The notes under the pieces are model-generated. The model was not told the DNA's origin and did no database searches. It was given only the letters and a program-made list of their open reading frames with translations. Both the position numbers and the translations under genes were made by a program. From Candidatus Scatovicinus merdipullorum (GTDB lineage: Bacteria > Bacillota > Clostridia > Oscillospirales > Acutalibacteraceae): a DNA stretch of 32,000 nt. Positions 4,764-32,000 of the stretch are shown here, piece by piece. The DNA lies in NCBI GenBank assembly GCA_018712865.1, contig DVGH01000041.1:21516-53515 (forward strand), written 5' to 3'. Every line of letters begins with the position of its first letter. The first letter of the stretch is position 1.

Positions 4764-5270
4764 TCAAATCCAACCCGGTGGATTATCAGACTCTTTTTTT
4801 TGGCGCAATTCTTTAAAAAAGTTACGCAAAACAGCGCTACACTCTGTCTGTAATACTCCGCCGGTCAACTTTGGCTTATGATTGTACGGCAGATCAAACA
4901 AGTTAACAACAGAACCGCAGGATCCGGCTTTTTTATCATACGCACCAAATACCACGCGTTCTAAGCGGGCGTTGATAATAGCGCCTGCACACATAGGACA
5001 TGGCTCAAGCGTTATATAAATCGTACATTGCCACAGCCGCCAGCCGCCAAGTATCCGGCATGCCTGCGCAATCGCCTCAAGCTCTGCATGGCACAGCGCG
5101 TTTTTTACCTGTTCGCGACGGTTATACCCACGCGAGAGGATCTGCCCGTCCTTTACGATTACAGCACCTACCGGCACTTCGCCATTTTCGGCAGAATGTT
5201 CGGCGCAACGCAAAGCTTCGCGCATAAATAAGATATCTTCTTGCTGTGGTTGTGTTACATAAGCATCCAA
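4764..5270 (-). CDS. tadA: tRNA adenosine(34) deaminase
   Basis: CDA zinc motifs HAELEAI and PCPMCAGA are present, with GEVPVGAVIV near the N-terminus. TTG 5270 is preceded by AGAGGT. ATG 5225 is an alternative start, but the equivalent Met is internal in E. coli TadA. Confidence 0.92.
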   Translation of the reverse strand: MDAYVTQPQQEDILFMREALRCAEHSAENGEVPVGAVIVKDGQILSRGYNRREQVKNALCHAELEAIAQACRILGGWRLWQCTIYITLEPCPMCAGAIINARLERVVFGAYDKKAGSCGSVVNLFDLPYNHKPKLTGGVLQTECSAVLRNFFKELRQKKESDNPPGWI

Positions 5271-6298
5271 AACGATATTACCTCTAATAAAATCAATATA
5301 CTTAAAACAATCATACCGGGGGAAAGGAAAAAGCAGCGTATCTTTTCACGGAAAGTCAAAATATGATTCGGCTTCTTAAAAGTAAGCAAAGTATGGTCTT
5401 TTTTTGCGACCAGTGCAATCCCAAGAATACCCAACAGAAAAAACAGACCCATAAAACCTGCGTAATAGATTTCTGCAACGGTTTGTCCAAACTGCGAATT
5501 TATAATATCGCCCAGCACGGAAAACAAATTATTCATAAAATGCAGCAACATTGCCGGGATTATGGATCCGCTGTATACAGTGATGTAAGCGAAAACCAGG
5601 CCTCCAATGAATGCAAACGGGATCTGAATCAGATTACCGTGTATCAGTCCGAAAATAATCGAGGATGTTAAAACAGCAAAGCCGTCGCCATAGCTTCGTA
5701 AAGCGCCCAATAAAACACCACGGTATAGAAATTCCTCCACAAAAGCCGGCGTGACGGCAACCGCCAGAATATAAAGGATATTGGTGGCCCATTGGCCATC
5801 GAGTTTTACAGTGGATACCGCATCTAAGTTATAATGGATACCGATCATCGAAAGATTTTGCAGCATGCAGTCAACCATATAATTTGCAAACATTGCCACG
5901 GCAAGCCCCGCGGGCAAAAGCGCAGCAATACGCTTTATGCTGACAGTTTGCTGGAATGAAAAAAGATCGTCAAAACGCCGGCCGACCATGGCACGCAGAA
6001 TCAAAGCAGTTGTAAACATTCCCACAACCGACACAATTCCCGAAAGTGTATAGTACACATCTGGCGGGAAAGTAGAAGCTATGTCCATCTGGCCATAATT
6101 GATGGCACCGAAAATTACTGTAATGAAAATAAGAAAGGTCGTTATCAGGTTAAAAATAACAAGAAGAATGCATTGCGAAATTCCCGTTTTATTTGCAAGC
6201 GAGCGAAGCCTTCTTTTTTCGGTATCTTTTTTATAATCTTTATGATAGAAATAAAGCCAATCTGCGCCTTGTGTAAAGCCCTGCGGCGTCCACTGCAT
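5255..6298 (-). CDS. CPBP (CAAX/Abi) family intramembrane glutamic endopeptidase
   Basis: The protein is multi-TM with motifs EEFLYRG, FGLIHG and HFMNN. I prefer ATG 6298 over the ORF-track TTG 6391 because a near-consensus promoter (6353-6381) lies between the two. Confidence 0.8.
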   Translation of the reverse strand: MQWTPQGFTQGADWLYFYHKDYKKDTEKRRLRSLANKTGISQCILLVIFNLITTFLIFITVIFGAINYGQMDIASTFPPDVYYTLSGIVSVVGMFTTALILRAMVGRRFDDLFSFQQTVSIKRIAALLPAGLAVAMFANYMVDCMLQNLSMIGIHYNLDAVSTVKLDGQWATNILYILAVAVTPAFVEEFLYRGVLLGALRSYGDGFAVLTSSIIFGLIHGNLIQIPFAFIGGLVFAYITVYSGSIIPAMLLHFMNNLFSVLGDIINSQFGQTVAEIYYAGFMGLFFLLGILGIALVAKKDHTLLTFKKPNHILTFREKIRCFFLSPGMIVLSILILLEVISFWMLM

Positions 6299-6352
6299 AG
6301 AATCACATCCAACGTTTTTATTCAAATTTTTAATTTGATTATTTGCTTTGTT

Positions 6353-6381
6353 ATTATAGCATTCCTTTTTTTTGATTACAA
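6353..6381 (-). promoter_or_regulatory. sigma-A type promoter for the CPBP-tadA operon
   Basis: The minus strand reads TTGTAA (6381-6376), a 17-nt spacer ending in TGC, then TATAAT (6358-6353). Confidence 0.55.
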
Positions 6382-6462
6382 TAAAAACCAATAATTTATA
6401 AAAACAAAGAGAACTTCTTCGCGAAAAAAGTTTTTAAAGTTGTATAAATACACGGCTTTTGC

Positions 6463-20745: not shown

Positions 20746-21392
20746 TGCTGGAAATCAAAAAATATACTGTGAATATGCTGGAAACCAATTGCTATCTTAT
20801 AAAAGATGTGGCAAGCGGACTATATGCGATCGTTGATCCGGGCGGCATGACGCCGCCCCTTTTGCAGCAGCTTGCAAAATGCAAACAAGACCTTCGCTAT
20901 ATTTTGCTTACACATGGGCATTTTGATCATATGTGCAACGCGCCAGATATTCAGAAAATGACGGGCGCACCTGTTGTTCTATGTGAAGATGAAGCCGCTC
21001 TTTTACGCGACCCTGCGCTGAATTTGTCGTCAATGTTTACACAATATTCTGTCAAACCTTTTGAAGCGGAGCTTCTGCTTGGAGAAAATGCGTCTGTAAC
21101 GCTTGGTCAGACAAGGATTTGTATGATCAAAACGCCGGGACACACAAGCGGCAGCGCCTGCTTTATAGCAGACGGAAGGATTTTCTCGGGCGATACGCTG
21201 ATGTGCGGTACAGTTGGAAGGACGGATCTGCCTACCGGCAACATTAAGAAATTGCAAGAATCTTTAAAAAAACTCAAAGCTTTAAAAGGAAATTATATGA
21301 TACATCCAGGACATGGAAAAGATACGACGCTTGCGTTTGAAATAGAAAACAATCACTATTTAAGGAATATGCGGTATGAAGATCTATATTGA
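20745..21392 (+). CDS. MBL-fold metallo-hydrolase (glyoxalase II-like)
   Basis: Contains LTHGHFDH (HxHxDH), TPGHTSGS and a distal HPGHG. ATG 20745 shares one nt with the dtd TGA. Confidence 0.88.
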   Translation: MLEIKKYTVNMLETNCYLIKDVASGLYAIVDPGGMTPPLLQQLAKCKQDLRYILLTHGHFDHMCNAPDIQKMTGAPVVLCEDEAALLRDPALNLSSMFTQYSVKPFEAELLLGENASVTLGQTRICMIKTPGHTSGSACFIADGRIFSGDTLMCGTVGRTDLPTGNIKKLQESLKKLKALKGNYMIHPGHGKDTTLAFEIENNHYLRNMRYEDLY

Positions 21393-22857
21393 AAACCATT
21401 CGTTCCATTATGAAATAGAAAACCTGGTTCGGGTGTTTTTTCCAAATGAAAAGCTGGAGGTTATCAAGGATCATCCAGATGAAATCTGTCAAGAACCCTG
21501 CATCTTAACACGCCTTGCCGATGCGGAGGCGGGATGCACTACCGTATATGTAGCTGTTGCGATTGACGGAAATAAAAAAGAAGCTTCGCAGAAGGTTTTT
21601 GATACGTGCAGCGAAACAGAAGATGAATGCGAGCGAGTTATGGCGGTTTTGCTGTACGAAATACTTTCCGAGCAAACGAAAATGTACCCACCCTGGGGAA
21701 TATTGACGGGCGTAAGACCGGTTAAGCTGCTGCGCGCGCTGACCGATGCGCACGGCAGCAGGTACGCACAGGATTATTTTATAAAGAAGCTCCTTGTTTC
21801 GCCTGCCAAAGCACAACTGGCTGCAGAAACGGAGCGTGTGGAACGGGAAATTCTGACACTTTCAAAAAAACACTCCTTTTCCCTTTATATCTCTGTCCCG
21901 TTTTGTCCTTCCCGCTGCAGCTATTGTTCTTTTGTATCACAGTCGGTAGAAAAGGCGGCGAAGCTGATAGAGCCATATACACAGCTTTTGTGCAGAGAGA
22001 TTGCCGAAACCGGCAGACTGGCGAATAGGCTGGGGCTTGTACTTGAAACGGTATACATAGGCGGCGGAACGCCGACTACTCTGTTTGCCGGGCAGCTTTC
22101 CAGAATTATGGAAGCTATTCATACAAGCTTTGATATGCAGACCTGCAGGGAGTTTACAGTGGAAGCCGGCAGACCAGACACGATTACCTATCAAAAGCTT
22201 CTGGCAATCCGGGACGGCGGAGCAGAACGGATCAGTATCAATCCGCAATCCTTAAACGATAAAATTCTTGCGCAAATTGGCAGGAGGCATACGGCAAAGC
22301 AAACGTTAGAAGCGTTCTCACTTGCGCGGCAGGCGGGCTTTGGCCATATCAATACCGATTTAATTGCCGGACTGCCAACAGAGAGCGTTCAAAGCTTTCA
22401 ACATACACTGGACACGCTGCTTTCCCTTTCGCCCGAAAGCATTACGGTGCATACGCTTGCAATGAAAAAATCCTCCCGGCTGACAGAAGAGGGGATGCGG
22501 CTGTACAGAGAAGATGCGGCAACAGCCGCCGATATGCATGCCCTTTGTGCTTTATCGCTACCAAAGCATGGATATCAACCGTATTATTTATACAGACAAA
22601 GCAGGATGGTAGGGAACCTTGAAAATGTGGGATGGTCCCAAAAAGGACACGAGGGGCTGTATAATGTTTTTATTATGGACGAAACGCATACCATTCTGGG
22701 CTGCGGCGCAGGCGCTGTTACAAAGCTTAAACAGCCGTCTGGAACGTATTTGGAACGTATATTTAATTATAAATACCCATATGAATATATCAGTCGTTTT
22801 GAGGAAATGCTCAAGCGTAAGGAAAGGCTAGAACCGTTTTATGAACATTATGCCTAA
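21376..22857 (+). CDS. HemZ/HemN-like oxygen-independent coproporphyrinogen-oxidase-family radical SAM protein
   Basis: 493 aa with radical SAM motif CPSRCSYCSF, GGGTP, and an N-terminal extension of about 170 aa as in B. subtilis HemZ. It overlaps the MBL gene by 17 nt. Confidence 0.85.
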   Translation: MKIYIENHSFHYEIENLVRVFFPNEKLEVIKDHPDEICQEPCILTRLADAEAGCTTVYVAVAIDGNKKEASQKVFDTCSETEDECERVMAVLLYEILSEQTKMYPPWGILTGVRPVKLLRALTDAHGSRYAQDYFIKKLLVSPAKAQLAAETERVEREILTLSKKHSFSLYISVPFCPSRCSYCSFVSQSVEKAAKLIEPYTQLLCREIAETGRLANRLGLVLETVYIGGGTPTTLFAGQLSRIMEAIHTSFDMQTCREFTVEAGRPDTITYQKLLAIRDGGAERISINPQSLNDKILAQIGRRHTAKQTLEAFSLARQAGFGHINTDLIAGLPTESVQSFQHTLDTLLSLSPESITVHTLAMKKSSRLTEEGMRLYREDAATAADMHALCALSLPKHGYQPYYLYRQSRMVGNLENVGWSQKGHEGLYNVFIMDETHTILGCGAGAVTKLKQPSGTYLERIFNYKYPYEYISRFEEMLKRKERLEPFYEHYA

Positions 22858-23803
22858 CAGCTATCACCGCTTTGTTACAACTGCCGAACAAATCAATACT
22901 TCTGTGCGCACCGCGCCGCAGGATTTTGTCCGGTATATTGAAGACGCATATAATAATGCTGTGCAACATATTGCACAGCAGATTCTTTCACCTGCATGTG
23001 GATGCCGGATTGTAATGCTGACGGGACCTTCCGGAAGCGGAAAGACAACAACGGCAAAAAAACTGTCTGATGCGCTTGCAAAACAAGGCTTTGGAGCGGT
23101 GACAATCTCTTTGGATGATTTTTTTCTGGGGGAAGCGCGTACCGCGCCTGGAAAAAACGGAAAGCCGGATTATGAATCTGTTTATGCTTTGGATATTCCC
23201 CAGGTACATAGCTGTATGTTTGACCTGCTTCACTATGGTTATTGTAAAATGCCAAAATTTAACTTCCGCATGAAAAAACCATATAATGAAAAAAAGATCA
23301 TAACTTTACCGGAAGGGCATATAGCTATAATAGAAGGACTGCACGCACTGAATCCGGTTTTTACGGATGAATTTCATTGCCACGGCCTTTTAAAGTTATA
23401 TGTGAGCGTAAAGCAGGGGATCTCCTCAGGCGGGCAGGAGCTTTTATCCGCGCAGGATATCCGCTTTTTAAGACGCATGGTACGCGACTATCAGTTCCGC
23501 AAGGCGCTGCCTGCGTTCACTTTTGATATTTGGCCGTCTGTGTGCGAAGGGGAAAAAAGAAACATTGCTCCTTATAAGAAGCATTCGGATTTTACATTGA
23601 ATACAATTCATCTTTATGAGCCGTGCGCGGTCGGTGGGCTTGCCGTACCATTGCTCAAAACGATAGAAAGGGACAGCCCCCACCACCGAAAAGCACAGGA
23701 GCTTTTAGAAAAGATCTGTTTTTTTGCAAAGCTGGATTTGCAACTGATCCCACAGGATTCCCTGCTCAGGGAATTTATTGGCGGCGGAAGCTACAGTTAT
23801 TGA
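22841..23803 (+). CDS. P-loop nucleoside/uridine kinase (PRK/Udk) family protein
   Basis: Walker A GPSGSGKTT, ISLDDFF, IIEGLHALNP. It overlaps the radical SAM gene by 17 nt. No SD is visible, suggesting translational coupling. Confidence 0.75.
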   Translation: MNIMPNSYHRFVTTAEQINTSVRTAPQDFVRYIEDAYNNAVQHIAQQILSPACGCRIVMLTGPSGSGKTTTAKKLSDALAKQGFGAVTISLDDFFLGEARTAPGKNGKPDYESVYALDIPQVHSCMFDLLHYGYCKMPKFNFRMKKPYNEKKIITLPEGHIAIIEGLHALNPVFTDEFHCHGLLKLYVSVKQGISSGGQELLSAQDIRFLRRMVRDYQFRKALPAFTFDIWPSVCEGEKRNIAPYKKHSDFTLNTIHLYEPCAVGGLAVPLLKTIERDSPHHRKAQELLEKICFFAKLDLQLIPQDSLLREFIGGGSYSY

Positions 23804-29416: not shown

Positions 29417-29425
29417 ATGCTTTAA

Positions 29426-29451
29426 CCGACGCCTGTCAGGCGTCGGTTTTT
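29426..29451 (+). terminator. Rho-independent terminator after the S1 gene (may also serve the convergent HTH gene)
   Basis: Stem of 9 bp, CCGACGCCT with AGGCGTCGG, and a 3-nt loop, followed by T5 (29447-29451). Confidence 0.88.
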
Positions 29452-29509: not shown

Positions 29510-29683
29510 TCATGCTATATTATATTTTTCAGCTATTGCCTGTGATATTTCTTTGCTTGGGGCGGATTTTCCGCTTTCCCAATCCGTTATATCATGCATC
29601 GCAACGCCCAAATATTCGGCCAATCTTTGCCGCAGCTCGGGCTGCGATTTTGTCAGGATTAATATTGCATCTCTTATATTCAT
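29510..29683 (-). CDS. Small XRE/Cro-type helix-turn-helix protein (57 aa)
   Basis: LAEYLGVAMHDITDWESGKSAPS resembles the HTH_3 pattern (LA..LGVS...IS.WE.GK..P). ATG 29683 is preferred over the TTG at 29698. The RBS is weak. Confidence 0.6.
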   Translation of the reverse strand: MNIRDAILILTKSQPELRQRLAEYLGVAMHDITDWESGKSAPSKEISQAIAEKYNIA

Positions 29684-29885
29684 ACACTTGCACCACAATT
29701 TTTTATTAAAATATAAATCAAAAATGACGCATGGTCGAGCCGGTTAAGCTTATTTTCTGCGTAAAATAGATTTAAAGTAAAATATAATAAGCGAATGATT
29801 TATTTATCCTATTAATATAACATTTAAAAGACTTAAAATAAAAATATTTTATAATTATAATTAGATAATACAGCGGCTAATAATG

Positions 29886-29914
29886 TTGACTTGGGGTTTT
29901 ATATAAAGTAAAAT
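29886..29914 (+). promoter_or_regulatory. Near-consensus sigma-A promoter for the MetRS-like gene
   Basis: TTGACT (29886-29891), a 17-nt spacer, then TAAAAT (29909-29914). It predicts a leader of about 95 nt. Confidence 0.6.
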
Positions 29915-30014: not shown

Positions 30015-32000
30015 ATGACAGACAGTAAAAATAACGACATAAATATTGAGAAGCGCCCATCGTTTCCGAAGAGGGCAATAGTAACGGCCGGCATGCCTTA
30101 TGGGAATAAGGAGCTGCATTTCGGACATGTCGGCGGCGTGTTTATTCCGGCGGACATGATGGCAAGATTTCTGCGCGACAGGATAGGAAGCGAAAATGTT
30201 CTTTTTATTTCCGGCACCGACTGTTATGGCTCCACTATTGAAGAGGGGTTTGAAAAGCAGAAAGAAAACGGCGGATATACTGATATTCTTGAATATATAA
30301 AATCCAATCATGAAAAGCAGAAGTCGACGCTGGAGAAATTTTATATAAGCCTTGATTTGTTTGCAGCGTCGGCGTTCGGCGAGGCGGGCGAGATACACAA
30401 AAAGGTTTCCTGCGATATTTTTGAAAAATTTTATACTTCCGGTGCGCTTAAACTTGACAATGCGTATCAGTTCTATGATGAAGAGGCCGGCGCCTTTTTA
30501 AACGGCCGGCAGGTAGTGGGGCGCTGCCCTATAAGCGGCTGCAAGTCGGAGGCGGCGTACGCCAACGAATGCGCGCTTGGGCATCAGTATATGGAGCAGG
30601 GCCTCATAAACCCCATAAGCACTCTTACGGGAAAACGTCCGGTGCTAAAACCCACGCAGAACTGGTACATTGATATGGAAAAATATCGCGATGCTCTCAT
30701 AAAACGTCAGGACGAGCTACGCAAAAGAGACAATGTAAGGGAAAACCTTATAAGGGTGACGGACGAGTTTTACCGCGACCCGACTATATATGTAAAACGT
30801 GAGTTTATGCCACAGGCGCAGACTCTTTCAGATATGCCGGAATATACGGTAACAGACGACGAAAAGAAGCCGTCGGTCACACTGACTTTTTCGTGTCTGG
30901 CCGACCGAGAGAAAGCGTGTGAAATACTCAATAAAAACGACATACGCTATCGTACCGGCAAGACCATTGTGCCCTTTAGAATATCCGGCAACGGCGGCTG
31001 GGGCATAGCAGTGCCGGAAAAGGACGGCGTAAATGGGCGCACTTTCTGGGTGTGGCCGGAGTCTCTGTGGGCGCCGATATCATTTACAAAAGCGGCGCTT
31101 AAGATGCGCGGCTGCGATGATGACGAATGGCTTAAGTGGTGGACGGATGACGGCGCGGAAATATATCAATTTATAGGTGAGGATAATATATATTTTTACG
31201 GTATAGCCGAAACGGCAATGTTCATGGCGGCGTCAAAGCAGATGGAAAAAGGGTTGCGTCTGCCGAATATAATACCAAACCGGCATGTTTTCTTTATGGG
31301 AAACAAGGCCAGCAGCAGCGGCAAAATAAAGCCGCCTATGGCTGACAGATTGCTGGACTATTATACGCCTGAGCAGATGCGCATGCACTTTTTGGGAATG
31401 GCACTTTCCACTAAAAGCGTAAGCTTCAGTCCGCGCGCGTTTGCGCCGGAGGATGCAAAGCCGCAGGACAAATTTGACCCCGCGCTTAAAGAGGGAAGTC
31501 TGCTTACAAATGTATTTAACAGACTTGTGCGCTCCGGCTTTTACTCGCTGCAGAAGTATTTTGGCGGAATATTGCCGTATGGCGAGGTAAGCGCAGAGGT
31601 AAAGGAAAAGTGCGATAAACTTATACTAAAATACGAAGAGTGCATGTATAAATATGAGTTTAATGCTGTTATAGAAGAGCTTGACCTTTTTGTACGCGAC
31701 TGCAATAAGCGCTGGTCGGCAATAAGCCGCGAGGCTAAGGACGACGCGGAAGCTATGGGCCGGCTGCTTATCGATACTTTCCATGAAATACGTGTGCTGA
31801 CTACGCTTTATCATCCGATAGCGCCGGCGGGCTGTGAGATGATAAGGAAATATCTGCGTGTGCCGGAAAGCGTGTGGAACTGGGACAATATATTCGAGGA
31901 GATATATTTCTTCTTTGACAATGTGGATAATCATGAAATGAAGTTTTTAGAGCCGAGAATAGACTTTTTCGCTCCGCACGAAAGCCAAATTAAAAAATAG
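30015..32000 (+). CDS. Divergent class I aminoacyl-tRNA synthetase, MetRS-like paralogue (661 aa, complete; the stop is the last codon of the window)
   Basis: HIGH motif PYGNKELHFGHVGG, GTDCYG, zinc-knuckle CPISGC...ECALGH, WGIAVP, VW...APISF, and a C-terminal helical domain. The KMSKS position reads KASSS. The start is ambiguous among ATG 30015, CTG 29991 and TTG 29940. Confidence 0.8.
   Translation: MTDSKNNDINIEKRPSFPKRAIVTAGMPYGNKELHFGHVGGVFIPADMMARFLRDRIGSENVLFISGTDCYGSTIEEGFEKQKENGGYTDILEYIKSNHEKQKSTLEKFYISLDLFAASAFGEAGEIHKKVSCDIFEKFYTSGALKLDNAYQFYDEEAGAFLNGRQVVGRCPISGCKSEAAYANECALGHQYMEQGLINPISTLTGKRPVLKPTQNWYIDMEKYRDALIKRQDELRKRDNVRENLIRVTDEFYRDPTIYVKREFMPQAQTLSDMPEYTVTDDEKKPSVTLTFSCLADREKACEILNKNDIRYRTGKTIVPFRISGNGGWGIAVPEKDGVNGRTFWVWPESLWAPISFTKAALKMRGCDDDEWLKWWTDDGAEIYQFIGEDNIYFYGIAETAMFMAASKQMEKGLRLPNIIPNRHVFFMGNKASSSGKIKPPMADRLLDYYTPEQMRMHFLGMALSTKSVSFSPRAFAPEDAKPQDKFDPALKEGSLLTNVFNRLVRSGFYSLQKYFGGILPYGEVSAEVKEKCDKLILKYEECMYKYEFNAVIEELDLFVRDCNKRWSAISREAKDDAEAMGRLLIDTFHEIRVLTTLYHPIAPAGCEMIRKYLRVPESVWNWDNIFEEIYFFFDNVDNHEMKFLEPRIDFFAPHESQIKK

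Follow-up and report, generated by a model that had tools for sequence, protein, structure and literature searches.

A methionyl-tRNA synthetase-like paralogue of Clostridia with a remodeled amino acid pocket: a candidate non-canonical glutaminyl-tRNA synthetase

Results

A synthetase gene at the end of the window

The 32,000-nucleotide stretch of DNA analyzed here (the window), positions 21,516 to 53,515 of contig DVGH01000041.1 from Candidatus Scatovicinus merdipullorum (assembly GCA_018712865.1), ends with a complete open reading frame (ORF) for an aminoacyl-tRNA synthetase paralogue of class I with the fold of methionyl-tRNA synthetase (MetRS). The ORF runs from an ATG at 30015 to a stop codon (31998-32000) at the window edge and encodes 661 amino acids. 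In the product a Rossmann core is joined by a CP domain that bears a zinc knuckle, by a subdomain of about 70 extra amino acids, by a loop of the KMSKS type and by a helical domain for anticodon binding. Starting from an in-frame TTG (29940) would lengthen the protein by 25 residues, but the ATG is preferred because the NCBI product identical to ours (HIR03649.1, Acutalibacteraceae, named "class I tRNA ligase family protein") has 661 amino acids and the N-termini of family proteins line up from about this ATG in a MAFFT alignment.

Apart from a weak match to Anticodon_1, the sole Pfam domain family recognized is tRNA-synt_1g (E=1.7e-59), its match cut in two by an insertion. The NCBIfam MetRS equivalogs NF001100, TIGR00398 and NF008900 are all matched and all below cutoff (213.4 against 587 bits, 163.2 against 336, and 81.6 against 598 for the Bacillus type), and neither the glnS equivalog TIGR00440 nor tRNA-synt_1c (PF00749) was matched by the protein in the Pfam and NCBIfam scans. 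The closest solved structures are the MetRS of Pyrococcus abyssi (phmmer E=6e-39) and of Escherichia coli (about 1e-23), although identity to this archaeal/E. coli type is only 24%. An AlphaFold2 model computed from 120 family sequences is of high confidence (pLDDT 92.7, pTM 0.92), and the top Foldseek matches to it are all MetRS (1rqg, E=1e-34, TM 0.71/0.77); the MetRS-like domain of PyrN (PyrN-C, 9l8v) is also matched by Foldseek and by phmmer (E=6e-8). A first-pass annotation of this DNA had judged the product by eye to be colinear with E. coli MetG, and this was reproduced by HMMER against the MetRS chains of the PDB and by MAFFT against E. coli MetG. The likeness to MetRS far exceeds what chance would give. 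These comparisons support the reading of the gene product as a paralogue of MetRS whose catalytic motifs are intact and whose amino acid pocket is remodeled, and it probably descends from an archaeal/E. coli-type MetRS.

Catalytic motifs are kept and the methionine pocket is replaced

Residue equivalences were taken from the same two alignments, which agree, and conservation was judged over the 120-sequence family alignment. All the motifs and the insertion read out by the first-pass annotation are present at the expected residues (Table 1). The HIGH motif HFGH corresponds to E. coli H21-H24 and is invariant, as is K32, a lysine two residues ahead of it. Asp52, which contacts the alpha-amino group in E. 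coli MetRS, is kept family-wide as D69, in agreement with the earlier reading, and the four zinc ligands align by MAFFT with the E. coli C145/C148/C158/C161 knuckle. In the loop equivalent to KMSKS, K431, S434 and S435 are invariant and A432 and S433 nearly so. The loop had been called degenerate: the second lysine is indeed a serine, but this is less unusual than was implied. The missing lysine is not alarming, because the loop of the genuine P. abyssi MetRS is KFSTS and that of the active MetRS-like PyrN domain is KFSTG. K32 may take the role of a "HIGH-loop lysine", presumably standing in for the absent KMSKS lysine as in arginyl-tRNA synthetases that lack it.

In the counterpart of E. coli VWLDAPIGY, Trp253 is kept as W347, within a segment (WVWPESLWAP) that is invariant in the family, and Tyr260 is replaced by F357. 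Further along, Lys295 becomes E389, Ile297 becomes N391, and His301, Phe304 and Trp305 become Y395, A398 and E399, the last three exactly as first proposed. The Asn at the Ile297 position is found in archaeal MetRS too. Residues D390, F394 and Y395 are invariant, E399 and the family N391 are at least 90% conserved, and His301, Trp305 and Tyr260 of the methionine pocket are replaced family-wide by Y395, E399 and F357. As far as alignment can tell, the methionine-specific sulfur-binding His and the Trp floor are gone from the pocket, and a Tyr and a Glu have been gained. Because the replacements are conserved family-wide, the altered pocket is best viewed as what strong purifying selection on this enzyme has maintained, and not as decay.

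A useful comparison is PyrN-C, which is MetRS-like but activates glutamate and clamps its gamma-carboxylate with Arg390 and Arg425, Arg425 occupying the His301 position. No conserved Arg or Lys was found in the family alignment at the pocket positions that hold the PyrN gamma-carboxylate. With a Tyr at the His301 site, an acidic residue and no conserved Arg, the pocket would suit the carboxamide of glutamine and would be expected to repel the carboxylate of glutamate. Glutamine is nearly isosteric with methionine, and retuning from methionine to glutamine would therefore be chemically modest.

The extra segment noticed earlier after the CP domain spans about 70 residues (254-321), is a gap in E. 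coli MetG and has no counterpart in MetRS; it is modeled as a compact alpha/beta subdomain whose secondary structure is confidently predicted. In the anticodon-binding domain, N502, R503 and R506 are invariant. Of the elements that read the CAU anticodon in MetRS, the equivalents of E. coli N391, R395 and W461 are present (N502, R506 and W567), whereas the YVDEQAP loop just before W461, which includes D456, is deleted, leaving a six-column gap. As the first-pass annotation stated, the C-terminal Trbp111-like tRNA-binding domain of E. coli MetG has no counterpart in the MAFFT alignment.

Table 1. Features of the synthetase gene and its upstream region, in window coordinates
Feature	Coordinates	Strand	Basis or remark
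MetRS-fold class I synthetase paralogue, whole gene	30015..32000	+	HMM, AlphaFold2, Foldseek
Promoter-like TTGACT-17-TAAAAT	29886..29914	+	about 100 nt 5' of the start
PYGNKELHFGHVGG, residues 28-41, with HIGH motif HFGH (residues 35-38)	30096..30137	+	alignment
GTDCYG, residues 67-72	30213..30230	+	D69 = E. coli MetRS Asp52, invariant
Zinc knuckle CPISGC...EC..GH of the CP domain (C171, C176, C186, H190)	30525..30584	+	invariant in 120 sequences
Family-specific insertion, residues about 254-321 (RDPTIYVKREF...RYRTGKTIVPF)	30774..30977	+	gap in E. coli MetG
VWPESLWAPISF, residues 346-357	31050..31085	+	counterpart of E. coli VWLDAPIGY, with a 3-residue insertion
GEDNIYFYGIAETAMF, residues 388-403, remodeled side-chain pocket	31176..31223	+	alignment
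KASSS, residues 431-435, KMSKS-loop equivalent	31305..31319	+	HMMER; second Lys replaced by Ser
LLTNVFNRLVRS, anticodon-binding helix	31500..31535	+	N502, R506 align with E. coli N391, R395
NKRW	31704..31715	+	W567 aligned with E. coli W461 (MAFFT)

Glutamine T-boxes precede the gene in relatives

T-box riboswitches often precede synthetase genes in Firmicutes, and their control is typical of aminoacyl-tRNA synthetase, amino acid biosynthesis and transport genes. The specifier codon names the sensed tRNA, which for a synthetase gene is normally the tRNA of the enzyme itself. When 81 genomic loci of the family were scanned with the Rfam model RF00230 (gathering score 93 bits), a T-box was found directly upstream of the family gene in 19 (L006 and 18 of the loci L009-L088, by our numbering), with scores of 94-121 bits. 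When it is placed by a constant offset from the 3' strand of stem I, the specifier is a glutamine codon in every one of the 19 (CAA in 13, CAG in 6) and never AUG, and a purine follows in 18. The same Rfam columns in a control, the pheS T-box of L007, read UUC. Other registers were rejected, as they spell inconsistent amino acids (ACA/GCA/AAC at -1, AAG/AGG/AGU at +1). At the variable position of the UGGN bulge, 10 leaders have C and the other 9 have U. The only discriminator base with which a bulge C pairs is G73, present in bacterial tRNA-Gln, whereas tRNA-Met has A73. Of the roles suggested by the first-pass annotation, that of an enzyme for a different amino acid is thus favored, and the specifier narrows it to glutamine and tRNA-Gln.

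In Lachnoclostridium phytofermentans (L079) a perfect TTGACA-17-TATAAT promoter is followed by the T-box and by a terminator-like hairpin with a run of seven T, which ends at the Shine-Dalgarno sequence and ATG of the family gene, a predicted attenuation leader of classic layout. No T-box leader was found by Rfam search upstream of the window gene, even at E<=10, nor was the motif found in the closest relatives L009 and L010 or in the loci linked to gltX.

A metagenome scan with a stem-I pattern, biased in that the pattern required a CAR specifier, gave 67 glutamine-type leaders, of which 35 precede the family gene. One with a CAA specifier, a full-length T-box (81 bits, E=7e-18), precedes a genuine glnS in a Paenibacillus contig, whose product shares 48% identity with E. 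coli GlnS and 96% with GlnS of Paenibacillus cellulositrophicus. This glnS has an in-frame stop (L094:1498-1500) at the position of an E. coli GlnS Tyr (LRDPAL-stop-RII against MRDPVLYRI), either an assembly error or a pseudogene. According to the TBDB paper, few T-box classes are as rare as the glutamine class, in which CAA is the specifier most favored.

About 17 of the 67 leaders precede an MFS transporter. In loci L095, L097, L099, L102, L108, L114, L115, L117, L122-L124, L130, L136, L144 and L156 it is an MFS_1/MFS_3 protein of 400-457 amino acids, apparently from Bacilli (leaders of 100-118 bits where checked), and a candidate glutamine-related transporter. In L143 a single glutamine-type stem I match (1609-1691) is followed by a P-II-like nitrogen-regulatory protein of 125 amino acids (PF00543, E=3.5e-7).

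A widespread family of Clostridia

More than 5000 matches were obtained in a search of 5.8 billion proteins. The best 120, used in the alignments, are all 640-720 amino acids long and 51-78% identical, with 51-55% identity between Clostridial families. When one genome per GTDB species was scanned with the family peptides WVWPESLW and G[EQ]DN[IV]YFY, the family was found in at least 594 species, almost all of them Clostridia. Carriers include Lachnospiraceae, Oscillospiraceae, Ruminococcus, Clostridium sensu stricto, Herbinix, L. phytofermentans, C. sartagoforme, C. cellulovorans, C. thermarum and Vallitalea. The NCBI label is "class I tRNA ligase family protein", and some database entries are named methionine--tRNA ligase. 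Literature searches and the 2024 AARS Online catalogue yielded no description of the family.

In two strains of L. phytofermentans the gene lies between a hypothetical gene and an EamA gene, in the order gap-pgk-tpi-hypothetical-[family gene]-EamA-MatE-gpmI-secG-rnr. The published ISDg data consulted give pgk, tpi and the MATE gene of that strain as Cphy2875, Cphy2874 and Cphy2869 (PMC5171806, PMC4452783, PMC4230839), and from this synteny alone we infer that ISDg itself carries the family gene. The same tables carry, as an entry of its own, a "methionyl-tRNA synthetase" (Cphy_0025) at 40.5 kb, adjoining the aminopeptidase gene Cphy_0024 and possessing its own T-box (40126-40381) with a mapped transcription start site at 40134 (PMC5171806, PMC4452783, PMC4230839). 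No "glutaminyl-tRNA synthetase" appears among the ISDg table entries listed, which is not conclusive.

Genomic neighborhood

In the window, the run mazG(yabN)-hup-yabO-yabP-yabQ-divIC-yabR and then a strong terminator (29424-29448) lie 5' of the gene, and the longer contigs that encode the identical protein, which extend past the window end, continue with hpf, rlmL and groES/EL. The first-pass annotation had placed the gene in a segment of atypical codon usage. Its GC content at third codon positions (0.538) is the highest, and its codon-fraction correlation with the other window genes (0.745, against 0.78-0.95 for the rest) the lowest, of the 15 window genes, but the deviation is mild and the overall GC content of the gene ordinary (0.47). 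It could stem from high expression or from an old transfer. The suggestion of a foreign segment did not hold up, and a horizontal-transfer island was rejected, given the ordinary GC content and the housekeeping nature of the flanking genes.

The XRE regulator reported beside the gene is an ORF (29510-29698, opposite strand) of 62 amino acids with an HTH_3 match (E=4.4e-6), but its association with the family is not conserved. At its position the closest relative encodes a 332-amino acid fusion of a helix-turn-helix and a methyltransferase (L009:1149-2147, minus strand), and the window ORF, which matches only the N-terminal helix-turn-helix, looks like a truncated remnant or a stand-alone domain. 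In another contig with the identical protein (L001:7191-7661 and upstream) the yabN-yabR run is replaced by uvrB-gyrB-gyrA-secG followed by an IS200/IS605-type Y1 transposase, indicating a rearrangement breakpoint just 5' of the gene.

Across 122 family loci no universal neighbor or conserved operon partner was found. The recurrent neighbors are a LysM-like protein (14 loci, the commonest), lexA (13), an ABC transporter (12), gltX (9), rsfS (9), obg/yhbY/nadD (5-6) and mnmA (5). Five of the nine gltX genes are operon-like, with a gap of 14-35 nt. By our estimate chance alone would place gltX beside the family gene in roughly 0.5 loci, though the loci are not phylogenetically independent. The product of mnmA thiolates U34 of tRNA-Gln, tRNA-Glu and tRNA-Lys, and adjacency to gltX and mnmA may be taken as weak, independent links to Glu/Gln-tRNA metabolism. 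In L013, L048, L055, L078 and L088 the gene directly upstream on the same strand (e.g., L048:763-2433) is a long, divergent gltX paralogue (545-556 amino acids) that barely clears the TIGR00464 cutoff (303-310 against 290 bits), and in Ruminococcus-type loci a canonical gltX (487 bits) lies nearby on the opposite strand.

No cupin, N-hydroxylase, biosynthetic or resistance context recurs in the 122 loci, and no tRNA genes adjoin the family gene in the window and 60 loci. Apart from the Paenibacillus glnS, a search of the retrieved loci for canonical metG or glnS matched just the family gene and a single ileS fragment; the top 120 matches of a search with glutaminyl-tRNA synthetase (GlnRS) for contigs shared with the family are all from Bacilli, mostly Paenibacillus.

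Elsewhere in the window, the ORF at 5255-6391, on the strand opposite to nearly all window genes, has a GC content of 0.40 against 0.47-0.51 in its neighbors and is possibly a foreign insertion. At 21376-23803 a radical-SAM protein of 493 amino acids is followed by an overlapping P-loop kinase/AAA-like protein of 320 amino acids, the pair sitting between dtd/MBL-hydrolase and a MurJ-like flippase, an arrangement kept in related contigs. A 6S RNA and a purine riboswitch in DNA flanking other loci (L007:14737-14921 and L095:152-251) are unrelated to the family.

Discussion

What might a MetRS-like enzyme without a methionine pocket be doing in so many Clostridia? The simplest reading is an enzyme that charges tRNA-Gln, because the adenylation machinery is intact, the methionine-binding His and Trp are lost, the anticodon loop is reshaped and the gene is under glutamine T-box control. 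That tRNA-Gln is the substrate seems quite likely; that glutamine and not glutamate is the amino acid we would put only a little above even. At that same modest level of confidence, we propose that the family is a MetRS-derived, non-canonical GlnRS that charges tRNA-Gln directly with glutamine. It would be a catalytically competent class I synthetase that no longer serves methionine. In relatives of the window organism, the gene would be induced by uncharged tRNA-Gln; the enzyme would bind tRNA-Gln, form an aminoacyl-AMP from amino acid and ATP, and then transfer the aminoacyl moiety, most probably glutamine, to A76 of tRNA-Gln. Identity of 51-55% between Clostridial families and housekeeping neighbors (lexA, rsfS, obg, nadD, hpf, groEL) are consistent with an enzyme essential for translation, and the role in many Clostridia is presumably a housekeeping one.

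Several observations weigh against this proposal. Only about a quarter of the loci have a T-box, and the window gene is not among them; the metagenome leaders come from a scan that presupposed the glutamine specifier; and the MetRS residues that contact C34 (E. coli N391, R395 and W461) are retained, which is not obviously expected for a UUG anticodon. Furthermore, the available ISDg tables list gatCAB (Cphy_0637-0639), adjoining aspS (PMC5171806, PMC4452783, PMC4230839), so that an indirect route to Gln-tRNA-Gln may coexist in this organism. This last point keeps alive the alternative of a mischarging synthetase that, like Helicobacter GluRS2, loads glutamate onto tRNA-Gln for amidation by GatCAB. 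A T-box sensing the charging of tRNA-Gln would serve such an enzyme equally well, gltX adjoins in nine loci, PyrN-C demonstrates that a MetRS scaffold can activate glutamate, and sister strains of ISDg carry the family gene. However, the pocket lacks a conserved Arg or Lys where PyrN holds the gamma-carboxylate and is lined by the nearly invariant E399, and the clustering of gatCAB with aspS, as far as those tables go, suggests a role in Asn-tRNA formation. We therefore consider glutamate the less probable substrate, and this alternative as a whole unlikely, although it deserves to be taken seriously.

The remaining explanations appear less probable than the mischarging synthetase. A tRNA-independent ligase, passing an adenylated amino acid to a small-molecule acceptor as MshC and the MetRS-like half of the hydrazine synthetases do, is suggested by the Foldseek and phmmer matches to PyrN-C with its KFSTG loop. 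It is nonetheless very unlikely: PyrN is distant (E=6e-8 against 6e-39 for P. abyssi MetRS), no cupin is fused or recurrent, recurrent N-hydroxylases and gene clusters are likewise missing, the whole anticodon-binding domain is kept and conserved, and T-box control of the kind seen here is typical of aminoacyl-tRNA synthetase, biosynthesis and transport genes. Hardly more credible is a second MetRS, inhibitor-resistant as the first-pass annotation had entertained or otherwise specialized, that still charges tRNA-Met. The MetRS fold, the retained equivalents of N391, R395 and W461 and the methionine--tRNA ligase label of some database entries would agree with it, whereas the scores fall far under all MetRS equivalog cutoffs, His301, Trp305 and Tyr260 are replaced in every member, the T-boxes never specify methionine, and none of the 122 loci has a biosynthetic or resistance context; ISDg, moreover, has in Cphy_0025 a separately annotated MetRS with its own T-box, in a gene context unlike that of the family gene in the two other strains. 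The earlier suggestion of a non-catalytic tRNA-binding or regulatory paralogue draws on the missing KMSKS lysine. We give it scarcely any credence, since the 120 sequences never vary at HFGH, D69, K431, S434-S435 or the zinc ligands, active enzymes carry KFSTS or KFSTG loops, and the invariant K32 stands beside HIGH.

How does the candidate GlnRS family compare with known synthetases? With MetRS of the archaeal/E. coli type (P. abyssi 1RQG, E. coli MetG) it shares the Rossmann core, the CP zinc knuckle, the KMSKS-type loop, the helical anticodon-binding domain, the HIGH motif and equivalents of Asp52 and of N391/R395/W461, and the KxSxS loop of the P. abyssi enzyme likewise lacks the second Lys. 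It differs in the replaced methionine pocket, the roughly 70 extra residues, the deleted D456 loop, the absence of a Trbp111-like domain, and in being found under glutamine and not methionine T-boxes. With canonical GlnRS (class Ib, TIGR00440) the likeness is one of working and not of membership: the proposed function, and a CAA-specifier T-box before glnS in Paenibacillus too. The catalytic subclass and the anticodon-binding domain are unrelated, the family having a helical bundle where GlnRS has beta-barrels.

The MetRS-like domain of the hydrazine synthetases (PyrN-C, Spb40, Tri28) is likewise a scaffold derived from MetRS that has been retuned, in its case to a polar amino acid; it has HxGH, and its loop, of the KFSTG type, is without the second Lys. 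The hydrazine synthetases are tRNA-independent, possess a cupin domain, reside in natural-product clusters and, in PyrN, place two Arg on the Glu carboxylate; the family has only tRNA-synt_1g in Pfam, no cupin partner, a housekeeping context, T-box control and Tyr plus Glu in the pocket. Antibiotic-resistance paralogues of the MetRS2/MupA type would be expected to retain the cognate pocket and to be patchy, mobile or cluster-linked, whereas the family has a remodeled pocket and occupies housekeeping neighborhoods across Clostridia. A precedent for two unrelated synthetase families serving one amino acid is class I lysyl-tRNA synthetase (LysRS), a second, separate lineage of patchy distribution for a canonical amino acid, although it belongs to another fold lineage, serves another amino acid and, unlike the family, is biochemically proven. 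B. cereus lysK is likewise described as T-box regulated (PMC2916919).

If the proposal is correct, its consequences would reach beyond this one genome. The accepted catalogue holds a single GlnRS family. Class Ib is the only GlnRS listed by AARS Online in 2024. An unrelated second lineage of GlnRS would extend it in a way not seen for a canonical amino acid since class I LysRS, and would show a synthetase changing both its amino acid and its tRNA in evolution. It would also correct the "methionine--tRNA ligase" and "class I tRNA ligase family protein" labels on thousands of proteins from gut, rumen and soil Clostridia, and synthetic biology would gain a synthetase/tRNA pair that looks naturally orthogonal, and drug discovery a lineage-specific target. 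We regard as evenly balanced between true and false the proposition that Gln-tRNA-Gln is made in many Clostridia by a MetRS-derived GlnRS of class Ia. It would be a third solution for glutamine of independent origin, next to class Ib GlnRS and transamidation by GluRS/GatCAB, and a natural example of a synthetase scaffold moved to another amino acid and another tRNA. An enzyme of MetRS fold devoted to tRNA-Gln would be a novelty even with Glu-tRNA-Gln as its product, and the family bears on how Gln-tRNA is synthesized in the dominant Firmicutes of the gut.

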